DNA of 37,978 bases from a virus. This document shows positions 1,719 to 34,575 of this stretch, piece after piece. A program made the translations under genes and the position numbers. Under the pieces are notes generated by a model. It was not told the DNA's origin, did no database searches, and saw nothing but the letters and a program-made list of their open reading frames with translations. Within the stretch, counting starts at the first letter, position 1, and the number at the start of each line of letters is the position of its first letter. The stretch lies in UHGV virus genome UHGV-0283905, one strand, 5' to 3'.

Positions 1719-2519
1719 TTACTTGATAAATCCTGCCGCCTTTCCCCGCCTGTATTCCTCCATCAGCCACTGCGCCGGTGTTATTCCCCCAAGGGTGGCG
1801 GCGTTAGGCATGCACCCGAAACTTCGCCCTGGTGGATGGTAAACGTCTCTCCCTGTGTCCGGAGGCGTACTCATGGGTTCTGGCTTTGCCTGTATGCTGA
1901 TCACCGGATCGGGTATCTGCTGTCCGGAAGCCACCTTTTTCGCCCAATCATCGAGCAGCCTGCGCGCGTGTTTCTCAACCTCTATCTCGCTAAGCTGGCG
2001 CTGATACATTGCACGGCGGGTATCACATACGACCCAGTACATAACCGGATGCCGCCACGGGAATCTTTCGGGACCACCAGGATATAAACTTTTTTCCTTG
2101 CTGTACCGGTGAAACTCCGTCATCACATCGTCAATGGTGACGCCAAGAACCATCTTGCTGTCTTTGCACCACTTGATGAATTGCCCTGGCGACGGCCAGA
2201 ACGGAGATTCACTGGCGCGGGCGTGGCGCATACCAGCAGAAACCTGTTCACGGGTTCGGATCCCCCCTTCGGCAAACGCAGCAATCCACTGCTGTTTTGC
2301 AGCAACTTCCTGCTCTGGCGTCTTCAGGTTGGTTACCACTGCCGCCGGAAACAGTTGTTTCAGCTGTTTGAAAAGGGCATCAACAAGCCTCTCTGCTGAC
2401 ATGTTCACCACGTTGTCATTGTTGGTGTACTGATGCTCATAACCTGACATGCGAGAAAGGGCTTCTCCGTCACGGTTTTGTATCGCGGTAAAAACGTTGT
2501 TCACAAGAAATCCTCCCAT
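1719..2519 (-). CDS. replication protein P-like (DnaB helicase loader)
   Basis: Segment QQWIAAFAEGGIRTREQVSAGMRHARASESPFWPSPGQFIKWC closely matches my recollection of lambda P (QWVLAFRENGITTMEQVNAGMRVARRQNRPFLPSPGQFVAWC); lies directly downstream of the O-like gene. Confidence 0.8.
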   Translation of the reverse strand: MGGFLVNNVFTAIQNRDGEALSRMSGYEHQYTNNDNVVNMSAERLVDALFKQLKQLFPAAVVTNLKTPEQEVAAKQQWIAAFAEGGIRTREQVSAGMRHARASESPFWPSPGQFIKWCKDSKMVLGVTIDDVMTEFHRYSKEKSLYPGGPERFPWRHPVMYWVVCDTRRAMYQRQLSEIEVEKHARRLLDDWAKKVASGQQIPDPVISIQAKPEPMSTPPDTGRDVYHPPGRSFGCMPNAATLGGITPAQWLMEEYRRGKAAGFIK

Positions 2520-3292
2520 GCTTCAGGGCTGTTCCAGTGCGGAACGTTGTTATCAGGTAATGTTGATTGCTTCTGTCTGCTAATCTGCAGCCGCCTTGCC
2601 AGCTTCTGCTCCCACTGTGCCTGATGGTATGCCTTACCCTCAGCCATCCAGTAAATTCTGAACTCTGCAAGTTCCTGTGCCGTTGGCAGACTGTCCAGGT
2701 AGATCCCCTGCAAGGAGCTTTTCCGAAGAAAGTCATCTGATGGCTGCCATTGTTCATGCATGACAAATTTGCCTAATTGCCCTGGCCCACCAGGAGGAAC
2801 AAAGTTATTCATCACGGCGTTGTTTGCGCCGGGGTCATGAGGCACAGAATCCCCGTTTTTTGTCCTGCTCTCCCTCTCTTGGTTAAATGACTGGTTATAT
2901 GACTGGTTCTGGATCCCGTTTTTGGGATCATTCAACATCCCGTTTTTGGGTATATTCCCGTTTTCGGTAACATTACCGTTTTCGGGTTCATTGCCCCCCT
3001 CCCGGTTGCCTTTAATGTTCCCGTTTTTGGTTATATTAAGAGAGAAAACCCGCACTCTTTTCGTCGCTCCCTTTCTCTCTCCGGTATCTGAAATAAGCCC
3101 CATTTTCATGAGCGATATAAGCCCGGCCTGCACGGTTTTTTTATTCAGGCAAGTGTCTTTAACGAGGCGTTCTATGCTGGGGTAGCAGAGGTTATATTCA
3201 TCGGCTCTGTCAGCCATCGAGAGCAGTATGAGCTTTAATGACGAGCTACCTGGATCTGTCTCCCAGGCCCAATCTGTTGCATGTCTGCTCAT
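2501..3292 (-). CDS. replication initiator, lambda O-like, with origin iterons inside the coding sequence
   Basis: 263 aa; N-terminal winged-helix-like segment; central KNG/ENG peptide repeats encoded by DNA iterons; immediately upstream of the P-like gene. Confidence 0.65.
   Translation of the reverse strand: MSRHATDWAWETDPGSSSLKLILLSMADRADEYNLCYPSIERLVKDTCLNKKTVQAGLISLMKMGLISDTGERKGATKRVRVFSLNITKNGNIKGNREGGNEPENGNVTENGNIPKNGMLNDPKNGIQNQSYNQSFNQERESRTKNGDSVPHDPGANNAVMNNFVPPGGPGQLGKFVMHEQWQPSDDFLRKSSLQGIYLDSLPTAQELAEFRIYWMAEGKAYHQAQWEQKLARRLQISRQKQSTLPDNNVPHWNSPEAWEDFL
2912..3030. repeat. candidate origin iterons (about five copies of CCCGTTTT(T/C)GG) inside the O-like gene
   Basis: Copies begin near 2914, 2939, 2957, 2974 (variant) and 3020, followed by AT-rich TTATATTAAG; a separate tandem TGACTGGTT x2 lies at 2889..2910. 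Confidence 0.6.
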
Positions 3293-3658: not shown

Positions 3659-3889
3659 TCATGAGTAGAAGAAGTATGCCAGTTCTGCTTTTGAGCGCAG
3701 CCATTGTCTTGTTTTACAGGCTTTAAAAAGCCCATTCATCAATACTTTACCTGGCATTTTGCGCTTACCTGTTAAGTGAGTCTGGATATAGTGACTCGTC
3801 GTTCCGGCTTCCTGTGCGAAGGCTTCACGCTCATCCGGAGTAAGTGCAAGCCAGTGCTTTTTGAAATCGAAATGTCCGTTATCGCTCAT
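3659..3889 (-). CDS. Cro-like small HTH regulator, first gene of the early-right operon
   Basis: 76 aa, divergent from the repressor gene across an intergenic region holding three dyad sites; HTH-like segment AFAQEAGTTSHYIQTHLTG. Confidence 0.45.
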   Translation of the reverse strand: MSDNGHFDFKKHWLALTPDEREAFAQEAGTTSHYIQTHLTGKRKMPGKVLMNGLFKACKTRQWLRSKAELAYFFYS

Positions 3890-3925: not shown

Positions 3926-3988
3926 TCACCCATAAGGTAACAAAAATCAAGGATAGTTACCTATGGGGTGCATTTACCTGTTGGGTAA
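3926..3988. promoter_or_regulatory. OR-like operator cluster: three TTACC-N5-GGTAA-type dyad sites between the divergent Cro-like and repressor genes
   Basis: TCACCcataaGGTAA 3926..3940, TTACCtatggGGTGC 3957..3971 (one half degenerate), TTACCtgttgGGTAA 3974..3988. Confidence 0.6.
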
Positions 3989-4043
3989 TATTGCTTTAAA
4001 TTGAATCATCTACTGATTCATATATGAGGCGATTTTCCAGAAA

Positions 4044-4628
4044 ATGAAAAGTATCCAGGACGTCCGCAGGCAAAATCTCAACGACTTGATCGACCGTGAA
4101 TTCAATGGTGTTCAGACGCGGATGGCAGAAAAACTTGGAACTCAGGCAAATCTGGTAAACCGCTGGGCTCTTGGCAAGAAGGTTATCGGCGACCAGGTTG
4201 CACGAAAAATTGAAGCTGCCGCCAATAAACCCCGTAACTGGCTTGATATTGATCGTTCGCTTTCTCAGGAGGGTTTTCAGCCTGTCGGACCAAGCGACAT
4301 TGGTCAACTGGCGGCTCACAACCTGGAACGCTGGATGAGCGAAAGCCGCGACCTTTCAACACAGGGAAAACTTCACCGCGCATCCGGCGTAGCCCAGGTG
4401 ACAATCAGCCGCCTGTTAAACAATGAGGTCAGCGTTTCCATTTCCACCCTGGAGAATGTTGCATCCGCATTCGGGCGTCATGGCTATGAATTACTGATTC
4501 ACCCGCACGACCCTGCGACCATCAACTATGATCGCTCGCGCTACGCATTGTTACCCGAAACCGAGAAAGCAAAGATCGAAAGTTACATTGAATTTGTCAT
4601 CAACCAGAACGAAAAAAGCAAACAATAA
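4044..4628 (+). CDS. candidate immunity repressor, dual HTH (XRE-type), no peptidase S24 domain
   Basis: 194 aa; two HTH-like segments (about residues 20-45 and 115-140); no recognisable Ser/Lys autocleavage motifs; occupies the cI position opposite the Cro-like gene. Confidence 0.6.
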   Translation: MKSIQDVRRQNLNDLIDREFNGVQTRMAEKLGTQANLVNRWALGKKVIGDQVARKIEAAANKPRNWLDIDRSLSQEGFQPVGPSDIGQLAAHNLERWMSESRDLSTQGKLHRASGVAQVTISRLLNNEVSVSISTLENVASAFGRHGYELLIHPHDPATINYDRSRYALLPETEKAKIESYIEFVINQNEKSKQ

Positions 4629-4650
4629 AACCATAGTTTTCAGTAAGTAA

Positions 4651-4673
4651 GCCGCCTCATGGCGGCTTTTTTA
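4651..4673 (+). terminator. intrinsic terminator downstream of the repressor gene
   Basis: GCCGCC-tcat-GGCGGC hairpin followed by TTTTTTATT. Confidence 0.7.
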
Positions 4674-4685
4674 TTGCCAGATAGA

Positions 4686-4762
4686 TTACCTTACGGGTAA
4701 TTTTTTTAACTCATATCTATTGACACCAAACCAAATAAGCATAATTATTACCCCAACGGTAA
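4686..4762. promoter_or_regulatory. OL-like operators: two dyad sites upstream of the early-left operon
   Basis: TTACCttacgGGTAA 4686..4700 and TTACCccaacGGTAA 4748..4762, between the repressor terminator and the first early-left ORF. Confidence 0.55.
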
Positions 4763-8708: not shown

Positions 8709-9959
8709 TTATTCCCCCGCCATCCACTTCTCAAACTTCGACGGGGAGAACGGAATCAGATCCGTATGCTCCCCGTCAATCCAAGAATCAATCATATCGG
8801 CCCACTGCTGCAACATGTAGGCGCGCTGTCTGGCGTATTCCGCTTTGTTATATACGGCGCGCACACCTTTCTGCTCATGTGCCAGAGCCTTTTCAATCCA
8901 GTCTGAAGGATAACCAGCCTCATGCAACAACGTACTGGCTGTACGGCGCATATCGTGTACGGTGAAGTCCTGAATATGCTCACCATCTTCATTTATTATT
9001 TTCACCGTTCTGTCGATCAGAGAGTTCAGTGCGGCATTAGATAATGGCTTCCGGAAATTGTAACGACCAGGAACCAGGTATTCACTTCCACCAGCGCACA
9101 TCTGCAACCCGACCAATATATCCTGTGCCTGTTTAGGCAGGTAAATAACGTGCGCCCGGCTTCCTTTCATGCGGTCTGAAGGAATTGTCCATGTCCATTT
9201 TTTAAAATCTATTTCATCCCACGTTGCATTGGTGAATTCGCCCTTACGAACCATAGTGATAAGCACCAGTTTTAAAGCCATTTTCATAGTGCCCATAGCA
9301 CCAATGGCATCCAGCGTGCGGAAGAACAGGCCAATTTCTTCTGGTGTCAGTGTTCGCTCTCGTGGTTTAAATATGGCGATAGACGAAGGTTTAATGTCAG
9401 CCGCAGGATTAAACAAACCATGACCACGGTCATTGGCGTGACGGTATACGCTGCTGATGATCTCCCTGGCCTGCACTGCTGTTGCCCGGCCACCGCGTTC
9501 GACAATCCGGTCACACAAATCACGAACCATCGATGTGGTAATTTCAGCCATCATTTTATTGCCAAGAACCGGAAGTATGTCACGGTCGATCACCGCCTGT
9601 TTCATTGCGCGGGTACTGTCAGCCAGGATGACGTGTTTCATATAACTGTCGGTATGTACCGCAAACGTCTCGGCACCACGAATCTTTTTGATACCGTCAC
9701 GTTTAGCCGCAGCCGGTGACTGGCCTGCTTTAAGCAGCTTCTTTGCAGCAATCAGTTCTTCTCGCGCTTCTGCCAGGCTGATACCGTCACGCCCATACTG
9801 CCCGATTACCAGCGTTTCGCGGCGACCGTTGATACGGTAGTCGTAGCGAAACGAGACCGTGCCTGACGTAAGCACAGCCACATACAGCCCGTCACGATCG
9901 GAAACTTTGTACAGTTTGTCCTGTGGCTTGAGGTTTTTTAATTTTGTATCGGTAAGCAC
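8709..9959 (-). CDS. int: tyrosine integrase, P4-type
   Basis: 416 aa; N-terminal arm-binding-like segment LKPQDKLYKVSDRDGLYVAV; C-terminal catalytic region with HDMRRTASTLL and AHEQKGVRAVY (catalytic Tyr). Confidence 0.9.
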   Translation of the reverse strand: MLTDTKLKNLKPQDKLYKVSDRDGLYVAVLTSGTVSFRYDYRINGRRETLVIGQYGRDGISLAEAREELIAAKKLLKAGQSPAAAKRDGIKKIRGAETFAVHTDSYMKHVILADSTRAMKQAVIDRDILPVLGNKMMAEITTSMVRDLCDRIVERGGRATAVQAREIISSVYRHANDRGHGLFNPAADIKPSSIAIFKPRERTLTPEEIGLFFRTLDAIGAMGTMKMALKLVLITMVRKGEFTNATWDEIDFKKWTWTIPSDRMKGSRAHVIYLPKQAQDILVGLQMCAGGSEYLVPGRYNFRKPLSNAALNSLIDRTVKIINEDGEHIQDFTVHDMRRTASTLLHEAGYPSDWIEKALAHEQKGVRAVYNKAEYARQRAYMLQQWADMIDSWIDGEHTDLIPFSPSKFEKWMAGE

Positions 9960-10001
9960 AATTCACCCGTATAGAAACCATTTTCATGACGGTATGAGAG
10001 T

Positions 10002-10016
10002 ATACCTTTAAGGTAA
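10002..10016. promoter_or_regulatory. dyad site ATACCtttaaGGTAA about 43 bp upstream of the integrase start
   Basis: Variant of the TTACC-N5-GGTAA motif. Confidence 0.45.
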
Positions 10017-10248
10017 TACCGTCACCTGTACCGCCAAAAAATATGGTGTAGAGTGAATAGAAATGAATACATAAAAACAAAAACCCTCTGCAAAAACAGA
10101 GGGTTAAGTTGACATCTGAATAGAAATGATTTGCTATGAGTTAGCTGTTAATCATTCCCACTCAATTATTTACGGACACCATAACTAATTGAGTGATAAC
10201 ATTTTTCCAAAGATGAATTTTTCTCGTACCGTTTTATATACCGTCACC
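10016..10248. repeat. direct repeats in the int-proximal non-coding region (candidate attP arm sites)
   Basis: TGAATAGAAATGA at 10054..10066 and 10118..10130; ATACCGTCACC at 10016..10026 and 10238..10248; they flank a hairpin at 10084..10103. Confidence 0.4.
10072..10103 (-). terminator. intrinsic terminator ending the lysis/late transcript before int
   Basis: CCCTCTG-caaaaa-CAGAGGG hairpin; minus-strand RNA continues UUUUUGUUUUU. Confidence 0.7.
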
Positions 10249-10276
10249 GGAAATCAGTACCATGAAAAATGCCATG

Positions 10277-10759
10277 CTATCTGGTCAGTGTGTCGTACTG
10301 TTTTTCGCAGACTCTTCCGGCTTCGGCTGCCCGGTCAGCATACTCTGCCAGTTGTCTGTTTCTCTCGAGAGATTTGCTGAGCACGTCGGCAAGCAAAACT
10401 CCGGTGTCTGCGGCTGACGTCCCAGCGCCGACAATGGCGTTATACTGCCTGAGCTGCTCACGGATGGCAAAGAGTTGTTGCTGCAACCGGCCAGCGCGAG
10501 CGGCAGCATCAAGAGCATCATTGCGCGCCTGGTCGATCCTCTGCTGAGCTTCACGTTCATTGGCCACTTTCTCCTGTTCGTAGTACTGACGAACTTTGTC
10601 TTCTTCGGCTTTGCGGTCTTCTTCCGCCTGCGCATACCCGGCATCGTACTGGCGACTGCCGTGTATATTCCAGGAAACCACTCCGACGATGAACAGAGCA
10701 GCAAGCATCAACACAATAAGCATCTGTTTCCAATATGCTTTTACGAATGCCCAGATCAT
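10277..10759 (-). CDS. i-spanin (Rz-like)
   Basis: 160 aa; N-terminal TM helix MLIVLMLAALFIVGVV then charged coiled-coil periplasmic domain; directly downstream of the endolysin (ATGA overlap). Confidence 0.75.
   Translation of the reverse strand: MIWAFVKAYWKQMLIVLMLAALFIVGVVSWNIHGSRQYDAGYAQAEEDRKAEEDKVRQYYEQEKVANEREAQQRIDQARNDALDAAARAGRLQQQLFAIREQLRQYNAIVGAGTSAADTGVLLADVLSKSLERNRQLAEYADRAAEAGRVCEKQYDTLTR
10285..10560 (-). CDS. o-spanin (Rz1-like lipoprotein) embedded in the +1 frame of Rz
   Basis: Internal ATG at 10560 gives MNVKLSRGSTRRAMMLLMLPLALAGC... with lipobox LAGC and a Pro/Ser-rich mature part; AGGAG upstream; ORF table frame is 10285..10704. Confidence 0.6.
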   Translation of the reverse strand: MNVKLSRGSTRRAMMLLMLPLALAGCSNNSLPSVSSSGSITPLSALGRQPQTPEFCLPTCSANLSRETDNWQSMLTGQPKPEESAKNSTTH

Positions 10760-14746: not shown

Positions 14747-14767
14747 TAGCAAACAAATTATTTGCTA
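14747..14767. promoter_or_regulatory. inverted repeat TAGCAAA-N7-TTTGCTA abutting the LexA box
   Basis: Read directly; second palindrome in the same promoter region. Confidence 0.35.
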
Positions 14768-14783
14768 CTGTATAAATATACAG
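14768..14783. promoter_or_regulatory. LexA (SOS) box CTGTATAAATATACAG
   Basis: Fits the enterobacterial CTGT-N8-ACAG consensus with AT-rich centre; 22 bp upstream of the RBS of the 85-aa gene. Confidence 0.75.
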
Positions 14784-14805
14784 TTATTGCATGGAGAAGA
14801 TTAAG

Positions 14806-15063
14806 ATGCAGCAGTATCACTATCCACTGGAAGAGGGATTTACCGAAAGGATTCACACGCCGGGAGGCGTCAGGTCACTGGTGGAGGGATCGCACTTGAT
14901 GAAATTACTCCGGGATCTCGATAAGGATGGATTTAATGTCGATGGCCCACTTGCCGAACTGACTGCACTGATTAACTACGTCACCAGCTCACAGATGTCT
15001 ATGCGGGATCTGCAAACACATCTCGACTATTGTGCCGAACAATTACGAAAACAAACCAGATAA
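14806..15063 (+). CDS. small SOS-controlled protein, candidate antirepressor (85 aa)
   Basis: ATG 14806 preferred (GGAGAAG 6 nt upstream; table start 14791); paralogous to the C-terminal domain of the Bro-N protein. Confidence 0.55.
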   Translation: MQQYHYPLEEGFTERIHTPGGVRSLVEGSHLMKLLRDLDKDGFNVDGPLAELTALINYVTSSQMSMRDLQTHLDYCAEQLRKQTR

Positions 15064-15094
15064 GGTTTGCAATTACCAAGTGGAGTGCTTATAT

Positions 15095-15109
15095 TTACCT
15101 TTGAGGTAA
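15095..15109. promoter_or_regulatory. dyad site TTACCtttgaGGTAA
   Basis: Exact motif, flanked by inverted GGAGTGC / GCACTCC. Confidence 0.45.
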
Positions 15110-15200
15110 ATTTACATCGCACTCCTCTTATGCCATAGTAATCGGGCACTGGCAAAATCCAGTGCCGGGATTGGCGTCCCGGGTTACTAAGTGGCGCATA

Positions 15201-15222
15201 CCACGCCAGACGTGGTTTTTTT
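15201..15222 (+). terminator. intrinsic terminator inside the intergenic region between the two antirepressor-locus genes
   Basis: CCACG-ccaga-CGTGG hairpin followed by TTTTTTT. Confidence 0.7.
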
Positions 15223-15383: not shown

Positions 15384-16094
15384 ATGGCTAATGCTCAAAC
15401 TGCCATCTTCAAATTTGAATCTGTTAACCCTATCCGTTCCATCATTATCGATGGCCAACCATGGTTTGTAGCCCAAGACGTTTGTAGTGCGCTGCGTATC
15501 CAAAACGTCACCCAAGCACTTGAAAAACTGGATGATGATGAAAGGTCTATGTTCAACATAGGGCATGAACATCGTGCAATTTTTGACAGCCGAGTAAAAG
15601 AGATCAACATCATCTCCGAGTCAGGCCTCTACACACTGATCCTCCGCTGCCGCGACGCAGTGACACCAGGCACTATCCCCTACCGCTTTCGCAAATGGGT
15701 TACAGGTGATGTTCTTCCTCAGATCCGTCGCACCGGAAGTTACATTAAAAACTCGCTCCCGCAGGAAGAACGCATAAAGATGGTTGCCGACCAGGTAGCC
15801 AGCGCCACAGCATCAGCAGTGATGCAGGCAATGAAGGTAGAGAACAAAACCTACAGCGCCCCACTGAAGCCCGGCTACCGCAGCCTGATTCATTCGCCGT
15901 CTGGTGTTCTTGGCCTGACGGAGAACTCACTGCTGATGAATCTGCTGAACCAGTTACAGGACGACGGGCATGACGTATCGGGCGCGGCGGCGGAGCTGAC
16001 CACCATGTTCTGCTACATCGTCGGTGTGAGCAAATGCCTGCGTGATATCCAGACGCACGCGGAGTACATCAGCGACAAAGCAGGGTTCTTCTGA
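15384..16094 (+). CDS. Bro-N domain protein (antirepressor-type) with C-terminal domain paralogous to the upstream 85-aa protein
   Basis: ATG 15384 with GGAGA RBS (table start is GTG 15369); N-terminus FKFESVNPIRSIIIDGQPWFVAQDVCSALRI fits Bro-N. Confidence 0.75.
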   Translation: MANAQTAIFKFESVNPIRSIIIDGQPWFVAQDVCSALRIQNVTQALEKLDDDERSMFNIGHEHRAIFDSRVKEINIISESGLYTLILRCRDAVTPGTIPYRFRKWVTGDVLPQIRRTGSYIKNSLPQEERIKMVADQVASATASAVMQAMKVENKTYSAPLKPGYRSLIHSPSGVLGLTENSLLMNLLNQLQDDGHDVSGAAAELTTMFCYIVGVSKCLRDIQTHAEYISDKAGFF

Positions 16095-29632: not shown

Positions 29633-29683
29633 CTTCTTTCTCCATTAGTGGGTCTGTTACGACCCACAGGTTAATAACAGGCG

Positions 29684-33576: not shown

Positions 33577-33666
33577 ATCAATGACTCCGTACGCAATTAA
33601 ATTATTACCAATTTAACCACATATGATTTATTTATCGTAGACAGTTGACATTTAATGCACGAATTA

Positions 33667-34003: not shown

Positions 34004-34080
34004 GTGGCATTAGCTCAGTTGGACAGAGCAACCGCCTTCTAAGCGGTTGGTCGCAGGTTCGAATCCTGCATGCCACGCCA
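34004..34080 (+). tRNA. tRNA-Arg (anticodon UCU), CCA encoded
   Basis: Hand-folded cloverleaf: acceptor GTGGCAT/ATGCCAC, D-arm GCTC-AGTTGGACA-GAGC, anticodon arm ACCGC-CTTCTAA-GCGGT, T-arm GCAGG-TTCGAAT-CCTGC, discriminator G, CCA. Confidence 0.85.
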
Positions 34081-34123
34081 GAATCACGCCTAAGGACCGT
34101 GATGCCAGAAGTTCCAGGTGCTT

Positions 34124-34165
34124 GGCGGTGATGGTTTCCCTTGAAGGACTATCACCGCCCTTTTT
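34124..34165 (+). terminator. terminator-like hairpin after the tRNA
   Basis: GGCGGTGAT ... ATCACCGCC stem followed by CTTTTT. Confidence 0.55.
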
Positions 34166-34243
34166 ACAGCAGGACGCCATTGCGATGACTTCATGCTGTA
34201 AACCAGTACAGCCACGGAAGGCATAACTCATTGCTTCCAGTTC

Positions 34244-34267
34244 GCCCGGTTCGCCGGGCATTTTTTT
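34244..34267 (+). terminator. intrinsic-terminator-like hairpin in the leader of the DUF2829 gene (attenuator candidate)
   Basis: GCCCGG-ttcg-CCGGGC plus TTTTTTT, ending 12 nt before ATG 34279. Confidence 0.6.
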
Positions 34268-34278
34268 AAGGTGAGATT

Positions 34279-34575
34279 ATGAGCGAAACATCAACAGTAT
34301 CTTTCTCCACTGCTTTGTCATCACTCAAAGATGGTAAGCGCATTGCACGTGCCGGATGGAATGGCAAAGGCATGTATCTGCAACTGGTTAAGCCACCGCA
34401 ATCGGCCACTCCGAACGAGTGGCGATTTGACGTTACATGCGGTGACGAGTATACATTTGTACCTGGCGTTAAACTTCTACCGTGGATTGGGATGAAAACT
34501 GCTGACGGTTGCTTTGTACCGTGGCTGGCATCTCAAACCGATCTGCTATCTGATGACTGGATTGTAATTCAATAA
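34279..34575 (+). CDS. DUF2829-family protein (Tad2-like, candidate anti-Thoeris sponge)
   Basis: 98 aa; N-terminal FSTALSSLKDGKRIARAGWNGKGMYLQL and C-terminal VPWLASQTDLLSDDWIVI fit my recollection of the DUF2829 pattern; opposite orientation to flanking structural genes, own terminator. Confidence 0.55.
   Translation: MSETSTVSFSTALSSLKDGKRIARAGWNGKGMYLQLVKPPQSATPNEWRFDVTCGDEYTFVPGVKLLPWIGMKTADGCFVPWLASQTDLLSDDWIVIQ

Follow-up and report, generated by a model that had tools for sequence, protein, structure and literature searches.

The gene at positions 4044–4628 of the window (the whole 37,978-nt stretch of UHGV virus genome UHGV-0283905) very probably codes for the lysogeny repressor, of the Rep type, in a podophage resembling phiV10 and epsilon15 (genus Uetakevirus), a three-part, non-autocleaving protein that is switched off by a LexA-gated antirepressor, Ant. 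Homology, fold and domain layout, the presence of Ant and a LexA box, and the enrichment and conservation of the operators were all observed in this analysis (Table 1). In the proposed mechanism, the N-terminal Cro-type HTH domain of Rep (about aa 1–70) would read the operators, the middle domain (about aa 89–152), an XRE/HTH_3 fold, would act as the dimerisation module, and the C-terminal domain (about aa 153–194) would tetramerise Rep and dock the antirepressor. Rep tetramers would place pairs of N-terminal domains onto 15-bp TTACC-N5-GGTAA palindromes, predicted to lie in a group of three in the rep/cro-like intergenic region, as 62-bp pairs around early promoters and singly at other operon boundaries, and lytic transcription would be silenced by Rep bound to them. 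Upon DNA damage, RecA*-stimulated cleavage of LexA would derepress ant via its LexA box, and Ant, bound to the C-terminal domain of Rep, would split the tetramer into weakly binding dimers, releasing the DNA.

Table 1. Features of the lysogeny switch, in window coordinates.
Feature	Position	Strand	Remarks
cro-like gene, 76 aa	3659..3889	-	ORF; homolog of epsilon15 gp39 / phiV10 p41; phrog_35 'transcriptional repressor' (5.6e-13); phiV10 synteny
Putative switch-region operator triplet	3926..3988		TCACCCATAAGGTAA (3926-3940), TTACCTATGGGGTGC (3957-3971) and TTACCTGTTGGGTAA (3974-3988), between the cro-like gene and rep; palindrome search and repeats
rep	4044..4628	+	ATG to stop, 194 aa; lysogeny repressor, ortholog of phiV10 gp40, vB_EcoP_ZX5 ORF21, epsilon15 gp38 and SPC32H Rep
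Rep N-terminal domain, aa 1-70	4044..4253	+	Cro/YdaS-type HTH, presumably operator-reading; recognition helix aa 35-43 (ANLVNRWAL)
Rep middle domain, aa 89-152	4308..4499	+	Second HTH_3-like fold; equivalent to SPC32H Rep MDD
Rep C-terminal domain, aa 153-194	4500..4625	+	Equivalent to the Ant-binding/tetramerisation domain of SPC32H Rep (CAD, 'TetDloop')
Intrinsic terminator	4649..4668	+	Directly 3' of rep; terminator scan; also annotated in phiV10
Putative operator pair, 62 bp apart	4686..4762		4686-4700 and 4748-4762; brackets a promoter-like site
Palindrome TTACCTTTCAGGTAA	14714..14728		Upstream of the LexA box and ant; presumed Rep site
LexA box TACTGTATAAATATACAGTT	14766..14785	+	Exact CTGT-N8-ACAG, AT-rich spacer, near-consensus; ends 20 nt upstream of the ant start codon
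ant	14806..15063	+	85-aa small antirepressor, SPC32H Ant ortholog; 5D50_E 'Anti-repressor protein', E=6.1e-47, 86-88% identity
Palindrome TTACCTTTGAGGTAA	15095..15109		Downstream of ant; abuts a promoter-like site (15066-15095) facing the Bro-N::Ant-like gene
Bro-N protein with C-terminal Ant-like domain	15384..16094	+	Second, candidate antirepressor; homolog of ZX5 'ORF4 anti-repressor'

The ORF is real and, as the original prediction had stated for this 194-aa protein, lies in the cI position. It is divergent from the cro-like gene, which is the first gene of the leftward early/replication operon, and from the replication genes, i.e. it occupies the classical site of a repressor. The terminator immediately behind the gene indicates that rep is monocistronic. 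An antisense ORF overlapping rep (3996–4319, minus strand) was without support and was set aside.

Rep is identical at 193 of 194 positions (99.5%) to both phiV10 p40 (gp40) and vB_EcoP_ZX5 ORF21, the sole difference being a conservative one (S192 where the others have N), and 100% identical to the protein of phage HEMP4. The repressors of phiV10, ZX5 and the O157 typing phages 9 and 10 are thus essentially the same protein as the present one, and epsilon15 gp38 is a homologous repressor of divergent sequence (43% identity). At the DNA level, the region matched, among others, phiV10, vB_EcoP_ZX5 and the O157 typing phages 9 and 10 with 96.8–98.2% identity. Of 5426 complete E. coli genomes, 561 contained it; about 10% of these genomes thus carry the switch. 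Overexpressed ZX5 ORF21 represses lytic genes: free phage was abolished, and endolysin and holin transcripts were cut by more than 99.9% (PMC9782041).

A different label, HigA/VapI-type antitoxin, is attached to the 99.5%-identical gene of phage BP9. The model TIGR02607 (antidote_HigA) scored only 18.7 bits, well below its cut-off (47.7), and no toxin gene adjoins rep, the neighbours being the cro-like gene and the early operon. Membership of the RstR family (NF041951) was likewise rejected, since the score, 19.6 bits, falls short of the cut-off (80) and the match extends over aa 106–192 only; the C-terminal half of Rep has at most a distant resemblance to RstR.

Homology to Rep of the Salmonella phage SPC32H extends over the full length of the protein (198 aa in SPC32H, 194 aa here). 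A phmmer search of the PDB matched aa 1–190 to residues 2–197 of 5D50_A, 'Repressor' (E=3.5e-42), and tblastn aligned 99% of the query with 'rep' of the SPC32H record KC911856 at 42.7% identity. The top Foldseek matches of the Rep model were 5d50 ('Rep-Ant complex from Salmonella-temperate phage') and 5d4z, with E=1e-10 for the full-length 5d50 chains and target-normalised TM-scores of 0.70–0.75 for the C-terminal half against the 5d4z chains (Rep 92–198).

Two separate XRE-like HTH segments had been predicted, and these were found by several methods; the phiV10 GenBank record likewise assigns "two helix-turn-helix motifs" to gp40. Pfam HTH_3 matched Rep in two stretches (E=1.2e-9), the best being aa 106–147, which HTH_26 and LacI-type HTH models also matched. 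Nearer the N-terminus, aa 21–61 resembled the Cro-like YdaS HTH (Pfam YdaS_toxin; E=3.1e-4, below Pfam's cut-off), and the N-terminal segment matched the phage repressor families phrog_5736 (aa 4–76, 2.8e-11) and phrog_12107 (aa 1–75, 4e-10); the C-terminal HTH segment matched phrog_3949 (aa 92–152) and phrog_13326 (aa 98–192). The AlphaFold2 model (pLDDT 77.7) consists of two helical bundles (H4–59 and H83–151) joined by a disordered linker (aa 74–84), the second bundle being the five-helix middle domain, and of a C-terminal helix. When the two HTH motifs were compared by profile-profile alignment (hhalign), aa 22–48 and 105–131 aligned in register, but the score was weak (P=0.002, probability 13%), and a local alignment of the two segments with each other was insignificant. 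Internal duplication was rejected on these grounds; the segments are two HTH-type folds of separate origin and did not arise by a recent duplication.

SPC32H Rep is described as comprising an N-terminal DNA-binding domain, a middle dimerisation domain (MDD) and a C-terminal Ant-binding/tetramerisation domain (CAD) (PMC9986798). The present Rep aligns with each of these parts, and by homology it has the same three-part architecture, from which the domain roles are carried over. The N-terminal domain matched residues 2–72 of 5D50_A (E=6e-18; 54% identity) and the middle domain residues 4–67 of 5D4Z_A (E=3.7e-9; 34% identity); the alignments with 5D50_A and 5D4Z continue to the C-terminus, where identity to the CAD is 43–47% and Y162, L170 and F184 are invariant. 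The inter-domain linker is shorter than in SPC32H Rep and unrelated to it. Oligomeric state, middle-domain role and Ant binding of the present Rep would accordingly be those of a relative with about 43% overall identity, on which tetramer binding and its disassembly by Ant have been demonstrated by others: a tetramer of Ant is stated to bind two dimers of Rep and to break up the tetrameric form in which Rep binds DNA (PMC9638917). We infer that these mechanistic details also apply to the present Rep/Ant pair.

The prediction that Rep lacks a peptidase S24 motif was borne out. Pfam Peptidase_S24 (PF00717) gave no match to Rep even at E<=1 and was found in none of 86 relatives; no Ala-Gly or Cys-Gly dipeptide occurs in the whole 194-aa sequence, and no LexA-type catalytic fold was among the Foldseek matches of the model. 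Domain prediction, proposed beforehand as a check, returned two HTH-type helical domains and no LexA-like catalytic domain. Behind the second HTH-like domain, only about 42 aa remain in the model, and these are mostly helical. The sequence is consistent with a Rep that does not cleave itself in the SOS response. A classical RecA-sensitive repressor of the CI/LexA type, with a cleavage module too divergent to be recognised, would agree with the SOS inducibility of this phage group (ZX5 is inducible by mitomycin C; PMC9782041), but such inducibility is fully explained by a LexA-gated antirepressor, and as the domain is missing from Rep and its relatives alike, and the dipeptides and the fold from Rep, this explanation is highly improbable.

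The TTACC-N5-GGTAA palindrome occurs at 15 sites in the window (0.57 expected) and at 18 sites in SPC32H (0.67 expected), and the layout is alike in the two phages. Three sites of SPC32H (34390, 34407 and 34437) correspond in position and spacing to the switch-region triplet, the first member of which is overlapped by a leftward promoter-like site (3943–3915). The 62-bp pair beyond the rep terminator has an SPC32H equivalent at 33604/33666; it encloses a strong promoter-like site (TTGACA-17-AATTAT, 4720–4748) for the rightward recombination/excision operon. In the epsilon15 record, ATTACC-N5-GGTAAT is annotated as 'protein_bind: repressor', and the same palindromes carry this annotation downstream of the repressor gene, including the sites equivalent to the 4686/4748 pair with their 62-bp spacing. 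The palindrome TTACCTTTCAGGTAA is conserved, position included, in SPC32H, in Tyrion and in Klebsiella phage BUCT711. GGATAG, a candidate second operator motif recurring beside several palindromes, was not enriched in the window (10 against 12 expected).

It had also been suggested that the two HTHs might contact both half-site classes of the dispersed operators. This suggestion was not upheld, as the operators of the window form one palindrome class with ordinary degeneracy (e.g. GGTGA), the second HTH-like segment of SPC32H Rep is described as a dimerisation domain, and the ANLVNRW recognition helix is invariant in five Uetakevirus Reps. A reading in which both segments are DNA-binding but differ in the half-site class that they recognise, so that composite or dispersed operators are bridged by a single polypeptide, is very unlikely. 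The middle segment is a solid HTH_3 match with a canonical helix-turn-helix sequence pattern, Q118 and R123, which lie in the 'recognition' helix of this segment, vary hardly or not at all across the family, and variant half-sites (GGTGA/GGTGC) do occur in some operator copies, namely the palindromes at 3926 and 3957. Nevertheless, a single symmetric palindrome class is explained by paired identical N-terminal domains, and wherever the palindrome is kept, the recognition helix of the N-terminal domain is unchanged, even between Reps with an overall identity of only 43%. With a net charge of +4 and a pI of about 10, the N-terminal domain is basic, whereas the middle domain is electrically neutral (net charge 0), and the second motif tested was not enriched. 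In SPC32H Rep, DNA binding is assigned to the N-terminal domain and dimerisation to the segment equivalent to the middle domain, according to one description (PMC9986798), and binding is described as needing the tetramer, with pairs of N-terminal domains on palindromic sites (PMC9638917).

As originally proposed, Rep would be inactivated through an antirepressor and not through RecA, which agrees with the gene content of the window. The ant gene adjoins the tailspike gene, in synteny with SPC32H ant, and rep and ant are annotated in the SPC32H record at positions syntenic with this phage; the phage records with Rep are essentially those with Ant. The LexA box TACTGTATAAATATACAGTT is conserved with the region upstream of SPC32H ant and is also found in Tyrion, and LexA control of ant is predicted from this box at the sequence level. 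No promoter overlapping positions 14766–14785 was detected in a scan for sigma-70 consensus promoters. Two further exact matches to CTGT-N8-ACAG, at 29654 and 34196, were both judged to be due to chance; the latter lies inside an ORF (34010–34261, minus strand) and has a G+C-rich spacer. Matches with one mismatch were not enriched overall in the window (18 against 13.6 expected). In systems of the SPC32H type, LexA cleavage is described as leading to Ant synthesis and to protein-protein inhibition of the repressor (PMC7380047). Given the homology of Rep and Ant to the SPC32H proteins and the near-consensus LexA box, antirepressor-driven, SOS-gated induction is well supported by homology.

Downstream of ant, the window encodes a second protein related to Ant. 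It matched Pfam Bro-N (2.7e-19), and its residues 160–236 matched 5D50_E (E=1.2e-13); phrog_450 matches both the small Ant and this Ant-like domain. The fusion of a second Ant-like domain to Bro-N is an addition of the phiV10 group. Overexpression of the ZX5 homolog, ORF4 (a Bro-N-type 'anti-repressor'), lowered lysogeny and decreased prophage titres about 1000-fold, and it is the only antirepressor tested in a phage of the phiV10 group (PMC9782041). As the window version shares 79% overall identity with ORF4 and is Ant-like at its C-terminus, induction might be brought about mainly by this fusion, with the small Ant dispensable or acting on other prophages. This is unlikely, since the Bro-N gene has no LexA box and lies behind the Rep-type palindrome at 15095–15109; lysogens should therefore not express it, and it cannot serve as the primary sensor of SOS. 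Moreover, SPC32H has a working Ant switch without any Bro-N gene, and the small Ant and its LexA box are conserved across the genus. With the small Ant as trigger, the Bro-N::Ant-like gene behind its Rep operator could act as a feed-forward antirepressor that locks in induction.

Ant and its target differ in their degree of conservation. Ant is 86–88% identical to that of SPC32H and 82–84% identical to that of Tyrion, while the values for Rep are 43% and 78%. As Ant is far more conserved than Rep, it may inactivate the Reps of several Uetakevirus lineages. It is tentatively suggested that the Ant module is a cross-type inducer within a two-tier circuit, consisting of a LexA-gated Ant trigger and a Rep-repressed Bro-N::Ant lock-in; the likelihood of this is rather low. 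If true, Ant could cross-induce other prophages in the same host cell, as is the case with the Gifsy phages. In a variant judged less likely than this, the middle HTH-like domain of Rep would retain some residual role in DNA binding.

The present phage shares with SPC32H the rep position, the operator palindrome, the switch-region layout and the recognition helix, as well as the LexA box and the tailspike-side neighbourhood of ant; it differs in the Bro-N::Ant-like gene and in its host (E. coli, as against Salmonella). Lambda CI, P22 C2 and LexA resemble Rep in the N-terminal HTH, the divergence from cro and the cooperative binding to multiple operators, but they combine the HTH with peptidase S24, whereas Rep has neither an S24 domain nor a cleavage site, has other oligomerisation modules and would be inactivated reversibly via the antirepressor. 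The SPC32H Rep/Ant switch was reportedly described by Kim & Ryu (2013, J Virol) and Kim et al. (2016, PNAS), with the PDB entries 5D4Z (Rep alone) and 5D50 (with Ant), and the former authors are said to have found SPC32H Ant structurally distinct from sipho- and myovirus antirepressors. Gifsy prophage repressors with LexA-controlled, trans-acting antirepressors were reportedly described by Lemire et al. in 2011. The Gifsy repressors and Tum of coliphage 186 share with the present system a small LexA-controlled antirepressor, protein-protein contact and a non-cleavable repressor (PMC7380047); the likeness is one of logic.

Several elements of this switch are already known, namely the two HTHs (phiV10 GenBank note), the antirepressor mechanism (SPC32H, by genetics and structure) and the repressor function (ZX5). 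Derivatives of phiV10 appear in reviews of engineered diagnostic phages, and knowledge of the lysogeny-control genes is useful for engineering strictly lytic variants. The labels 'helix-turn-helix protein' and 'VapI antidote' on phage and E. coli genes that are at least 99% identical can be corrected to Rep. Similarly, the 'hypothetical protein' at 14806–15063 in phages of the phiV10 type, and with it PHROG 450 ('unknown function'), can be annotated as the probable Rep-specific antirepressor Ant.

The ORF at 4044–4628 (+), which encodes the 194-aa lysogeny repressor candidate (Rep), was confirmed. The two HTH-type segments claimed for this protein were borne out by Pfam, PHROG matches and an AlphaFold2 model. 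Pfam HTH_3 matched Rep (E=1.2e-9) in two stretches, of which the strongest was aa 106–147, and the N-terminal segment (aa 21–61) resembled the Cro-like YdaS HTH model (E=3.1e-4, which fails the Pfam cut-off). Separate PHROG repressor families covered aa 1–76 and aa 92–192. In the AlphaFold2 model (42 family members as input; mean pLDDT 77.7), helical bundles H4-59 and H83-151, with a disordered linker (aa 74–84) between them, are followed by a short C-terminal element ending in a long helix, H172-193. The two HTH motifs gave an in-register but weak profile-profile alignment (P=0.002) and are not the products of a recent internal duplication. Rep aa 106–192 (window 4359–4619) weakly resembles the RstR repressor family NF041951 (19.6 bits, cut-off 80), a sequence similarity hinting that Rep may have originated when a Cro-like HTH became joined to a repressor of the RstR type (HTH plus oligomerisation tail).

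The original prediction also held that Rep has no S24 autocleavage domain, and searches of the sequence, the relatives and the fold were all empty. No S24 match was obtained for Rep at E<=1, neither an Ala-Gly nor a Cys-Gly dipeptide is present in it, PF00717 occurred in 0 of 86 relatives, and the LexA catalytic fold, whose detection would count against the prediction, was not among the structural matches of Rep.

Over its full length, Rep matched the "Repressor" of Salmonella phage SPC32H (PDB 5D50 chain A; E=3.5e-42, aa 1–190 versus 2–197), and its C-terminal half matched 5D4Z. These two structures were also the top Foldseek matches, with a target-normalised TM-score of 0.70–0.75 for the C-terminal half. 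The homologous gene is annotated as rep in the SPC32H genome record (42.7% identity), and the C-terminal domains are only 43–47% identical; in the epsilon15 record the Rep homolog is annotated "repressor … HHpred: 5d50_A". SPC32H Rep consists of an N-terminal DNA-binding domain, a dimerisation domain in the middle (MDD) and a C-terminal domain (CAD) responsible for tetramerisation and antirepressor binding (PMC9986798). DNA is bound by the Rep tetramer and only weakly by the dimer, the pairs of N-terminal domains on palindromic sites are supplied by different Rep dimers, and tetrameric Ant binds two Rep dimers, breaking the Rep tetramer (PMC9638917).

Inactivation driven by an antirepressor rather than by RecA, as had been proposed, is well supported by homology to this characterised system, together with an antirepressor gene (ant) and a LexA box in the window. 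A LexA-box search of the window detected an exact, AT-rich CTGT-N8-ACAG at 14768–14783 (full predicted box, TACTGTATAAATATACAGTT) directly upstream of ant, the probable start of which is the ATG preceded by GGAG. As in SPC32H, ant is divergent from the tailspike gene, and the region 5' of it aligns with the SPC32H counterpart; both the LexA box and, ~40 bp farther upstream, a TTACC-N5-GGTAA palindrome fall within the alignment. Homologs of Rep and Ant were found in 37 and 35 phage records, respectively, essentially one set. In switches of this class, the SOS response leads to LexA self-cleavage, the antirepressor is made, and the repressor is inhibited by protein-protein interaction (PMC7380047, citing Kim & Ryu 2013 among others). 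Phage vB_EcoP_ZX5, a related E. coli phage, is inducible by mitomycin C. We infer that Rep is not cleaved, that the small Ant binds it, and that LexA binds the predicted box.

Across the genus, Ant is kept far better than Rep: identities to the SPC32H proteins were 86–88% for Ant and 43% for Rep, and to those of Enterobacter phage Tyrion 82–84% and 78%. This discordance suggests either an Ant that is active on different Rep types or an immunity region that has been swapped by recombination.

Coordinates of features in the window
Feature	Position	Strand	Remarks
Gene labelled replication protein P in near-identical records	1719–2519	-	beyond Cro-like gene
DnaT/HTH_36 replication gene	2501–3292	-	beyond Cro-like gene
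Cro-like gene	3659–3889	-	76 aa, divergent from rep; phrog_35, E=5.6e-13
Intrinsic terminator	4649–4668		after rep
Integrase gene	8709–9959	opposite to rightward operon	after that operon
ant	14806–15063	+	85 aa; match to 5D50 chain E "Anti-repressor protein", E=6.1e-47
Bro-N protein gene	15384–16094 (ORF listed from GTG 15369)	+	Pfam Bro-N 2.7e-19
Tad2-like (Thoeris anti-defence 2) protein	34279–34575	+	98 aa; Pfam PF11195, E=3.1e-24
15-bp palindromes (starts)	1605, 1667, 3589, 3926, 3974, 4686, 4748, 10002, 14482, 14714, 15095, 16161, 33667, 36734, 36752		one-mismatch search

SPC32H lacks the Bro-N protein gene of the window. The C-terminal domain of the Bro-N protein (aa 160–236) is Ant-like (5D50_E, E=1.2e-13), and phrog_450 matches both this domain and the small Ant. 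The protein is 79% identical to vB_EcoP_ZX5 ORF4, the "anti-repressor" tested in that phage, which is a Bro-N protein and not the small Ant. Overexpression of ORF4 reduced lysogeny (PMC9782041), an activity for which the Ant-like domain, given this identity, provides a rationale. The Bro-N gene lies behind a TTACC-N5-GGTAA site (15095–15109) and a promoter-like site (15066–15095), not a LexA box, and its product could be a second, Rep-repressed antirepressor. Between ant and the Bro-N gene, positions 15120–15220 are structured and non-coding and end in a terminator-like hairpin (15200–15216) with a T-run after it; in vB_EcoP_ZX5 a 37-aa "ash family protein" is annotated in the equivalent interval.

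It had further been proposed that Rep could contact both half-site classes of its operators through its two HTH segments. This was not supported; the second HTH-like segment is equivalent to the dimerisation domain in the solved homolog. Separate half-site classes were likewise rejected, the variation (GGTAA versus GGTGA/GGTGC) being ordinary degeneracy. With up to one mismatch, TTACC-N5-GGTAA occurred 15 times in the window (0.57 expected), mostly between genes or operons; SPC32H has 18 sites of this motif (0.67 expected). A triplet (3926, 3957 and 3974, the 3957 copy with two mismatches) lies between rep and the Cro-like gene, pairs spaced by exactly 62 bp were found at 4686/4748, around a promoter-like site (TTGACA-17-AATTAT), and at 1605/1667, and single copies (14714 and 15095) flank ant. 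The triplet and 62-bp pairs recur at equivalent positions in SPC32H. Sites of the form ATTACC-N5-GGTAAT carry the label "protein_bind: repressor" in the epsilon15 record, and no palindrome sites are listed within the examined region of the phiV10 record. Five Reps, those of the window, Tyrion, Klebsiella phage BUCT711, epsilon15 and SPC32H, have overall identities down to 43% and share an identical putative recognition helix, ANLVNRW, in the N-terminal domain. Rep carries a net charge of +4 on its basic N-terminal domain (pI ~10), and its middle domain is neutral. Judged from these sequences, the putative operators are explained by a single class of palindrome that identical N-terminal domains read in pairs. 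Q118 and R123 in the third helix of the middle domain are conserved, but residual DNA contact by this segment seems very improbable.

The rep gene is in the classical repressor position, and the rightward operon past its terminator carries genes for a YqaJ exonuclease, RecT, an AlpA-like regulator and a methylase. A one-mismatch palindrome (10002–10016) lies just past the integrase start. Beyond the integrase in the window (8709–10300) are phage lysis genes (DUF2514 Rz-like, 10277–10759), whereas guaA is found there in E. coli ECSC054, indicating that the window has the phage (attP) and not the integrated-prophage arrangement.

About 2 kb around rep matched, at 96.8–98.2% identity, phiV10, O157 typing phages 9 and 10, vB_EcoP_PAS61, vB_EcoP_ZX5 and others, all Uetakevirus (epsilon15-like podophages), and the region was present in 561 of the 5426 complete E. 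coli genomes searched. Rep is 100% identical to a HEMP4 protein and shares 193 of 194 residues with phiV10 gp40 and vB_EcoP_ZX5 ORF21. When ORF21 was overexpressed, free phage dropped to zero and transcript levels fell by 99.99% for endolysin and by 99.97% for holin (PMC9782041). Since gp40 is already described with two HTHs in the phiV10 GenBank record, that observation is not new; the original prediction is a correct reading of an already known protein.

A shortened variant (cluster P0077; 21 member sequences, 10 contigs, up to 37.6 kb) is identical to Rep over aa 1–106 and stops at Q107, and further truncated or frameshifted variants are present in public data (P0065, P0083, P0085 and P0086). 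Such proteins may be natural repressors that are inactivated or reduced to the N-terminal domain, perhaps those of clear-plaque or virulent derivatives.

The Tad2-like protein is, from its sequence, a possible anti-defence product of the late region. An exact CTGT-N8-ACAG upstream of its gene (34196–34211) is probably due to chance, as it lies inside an opposite-strand ORF and has a G+C-rich spacer.
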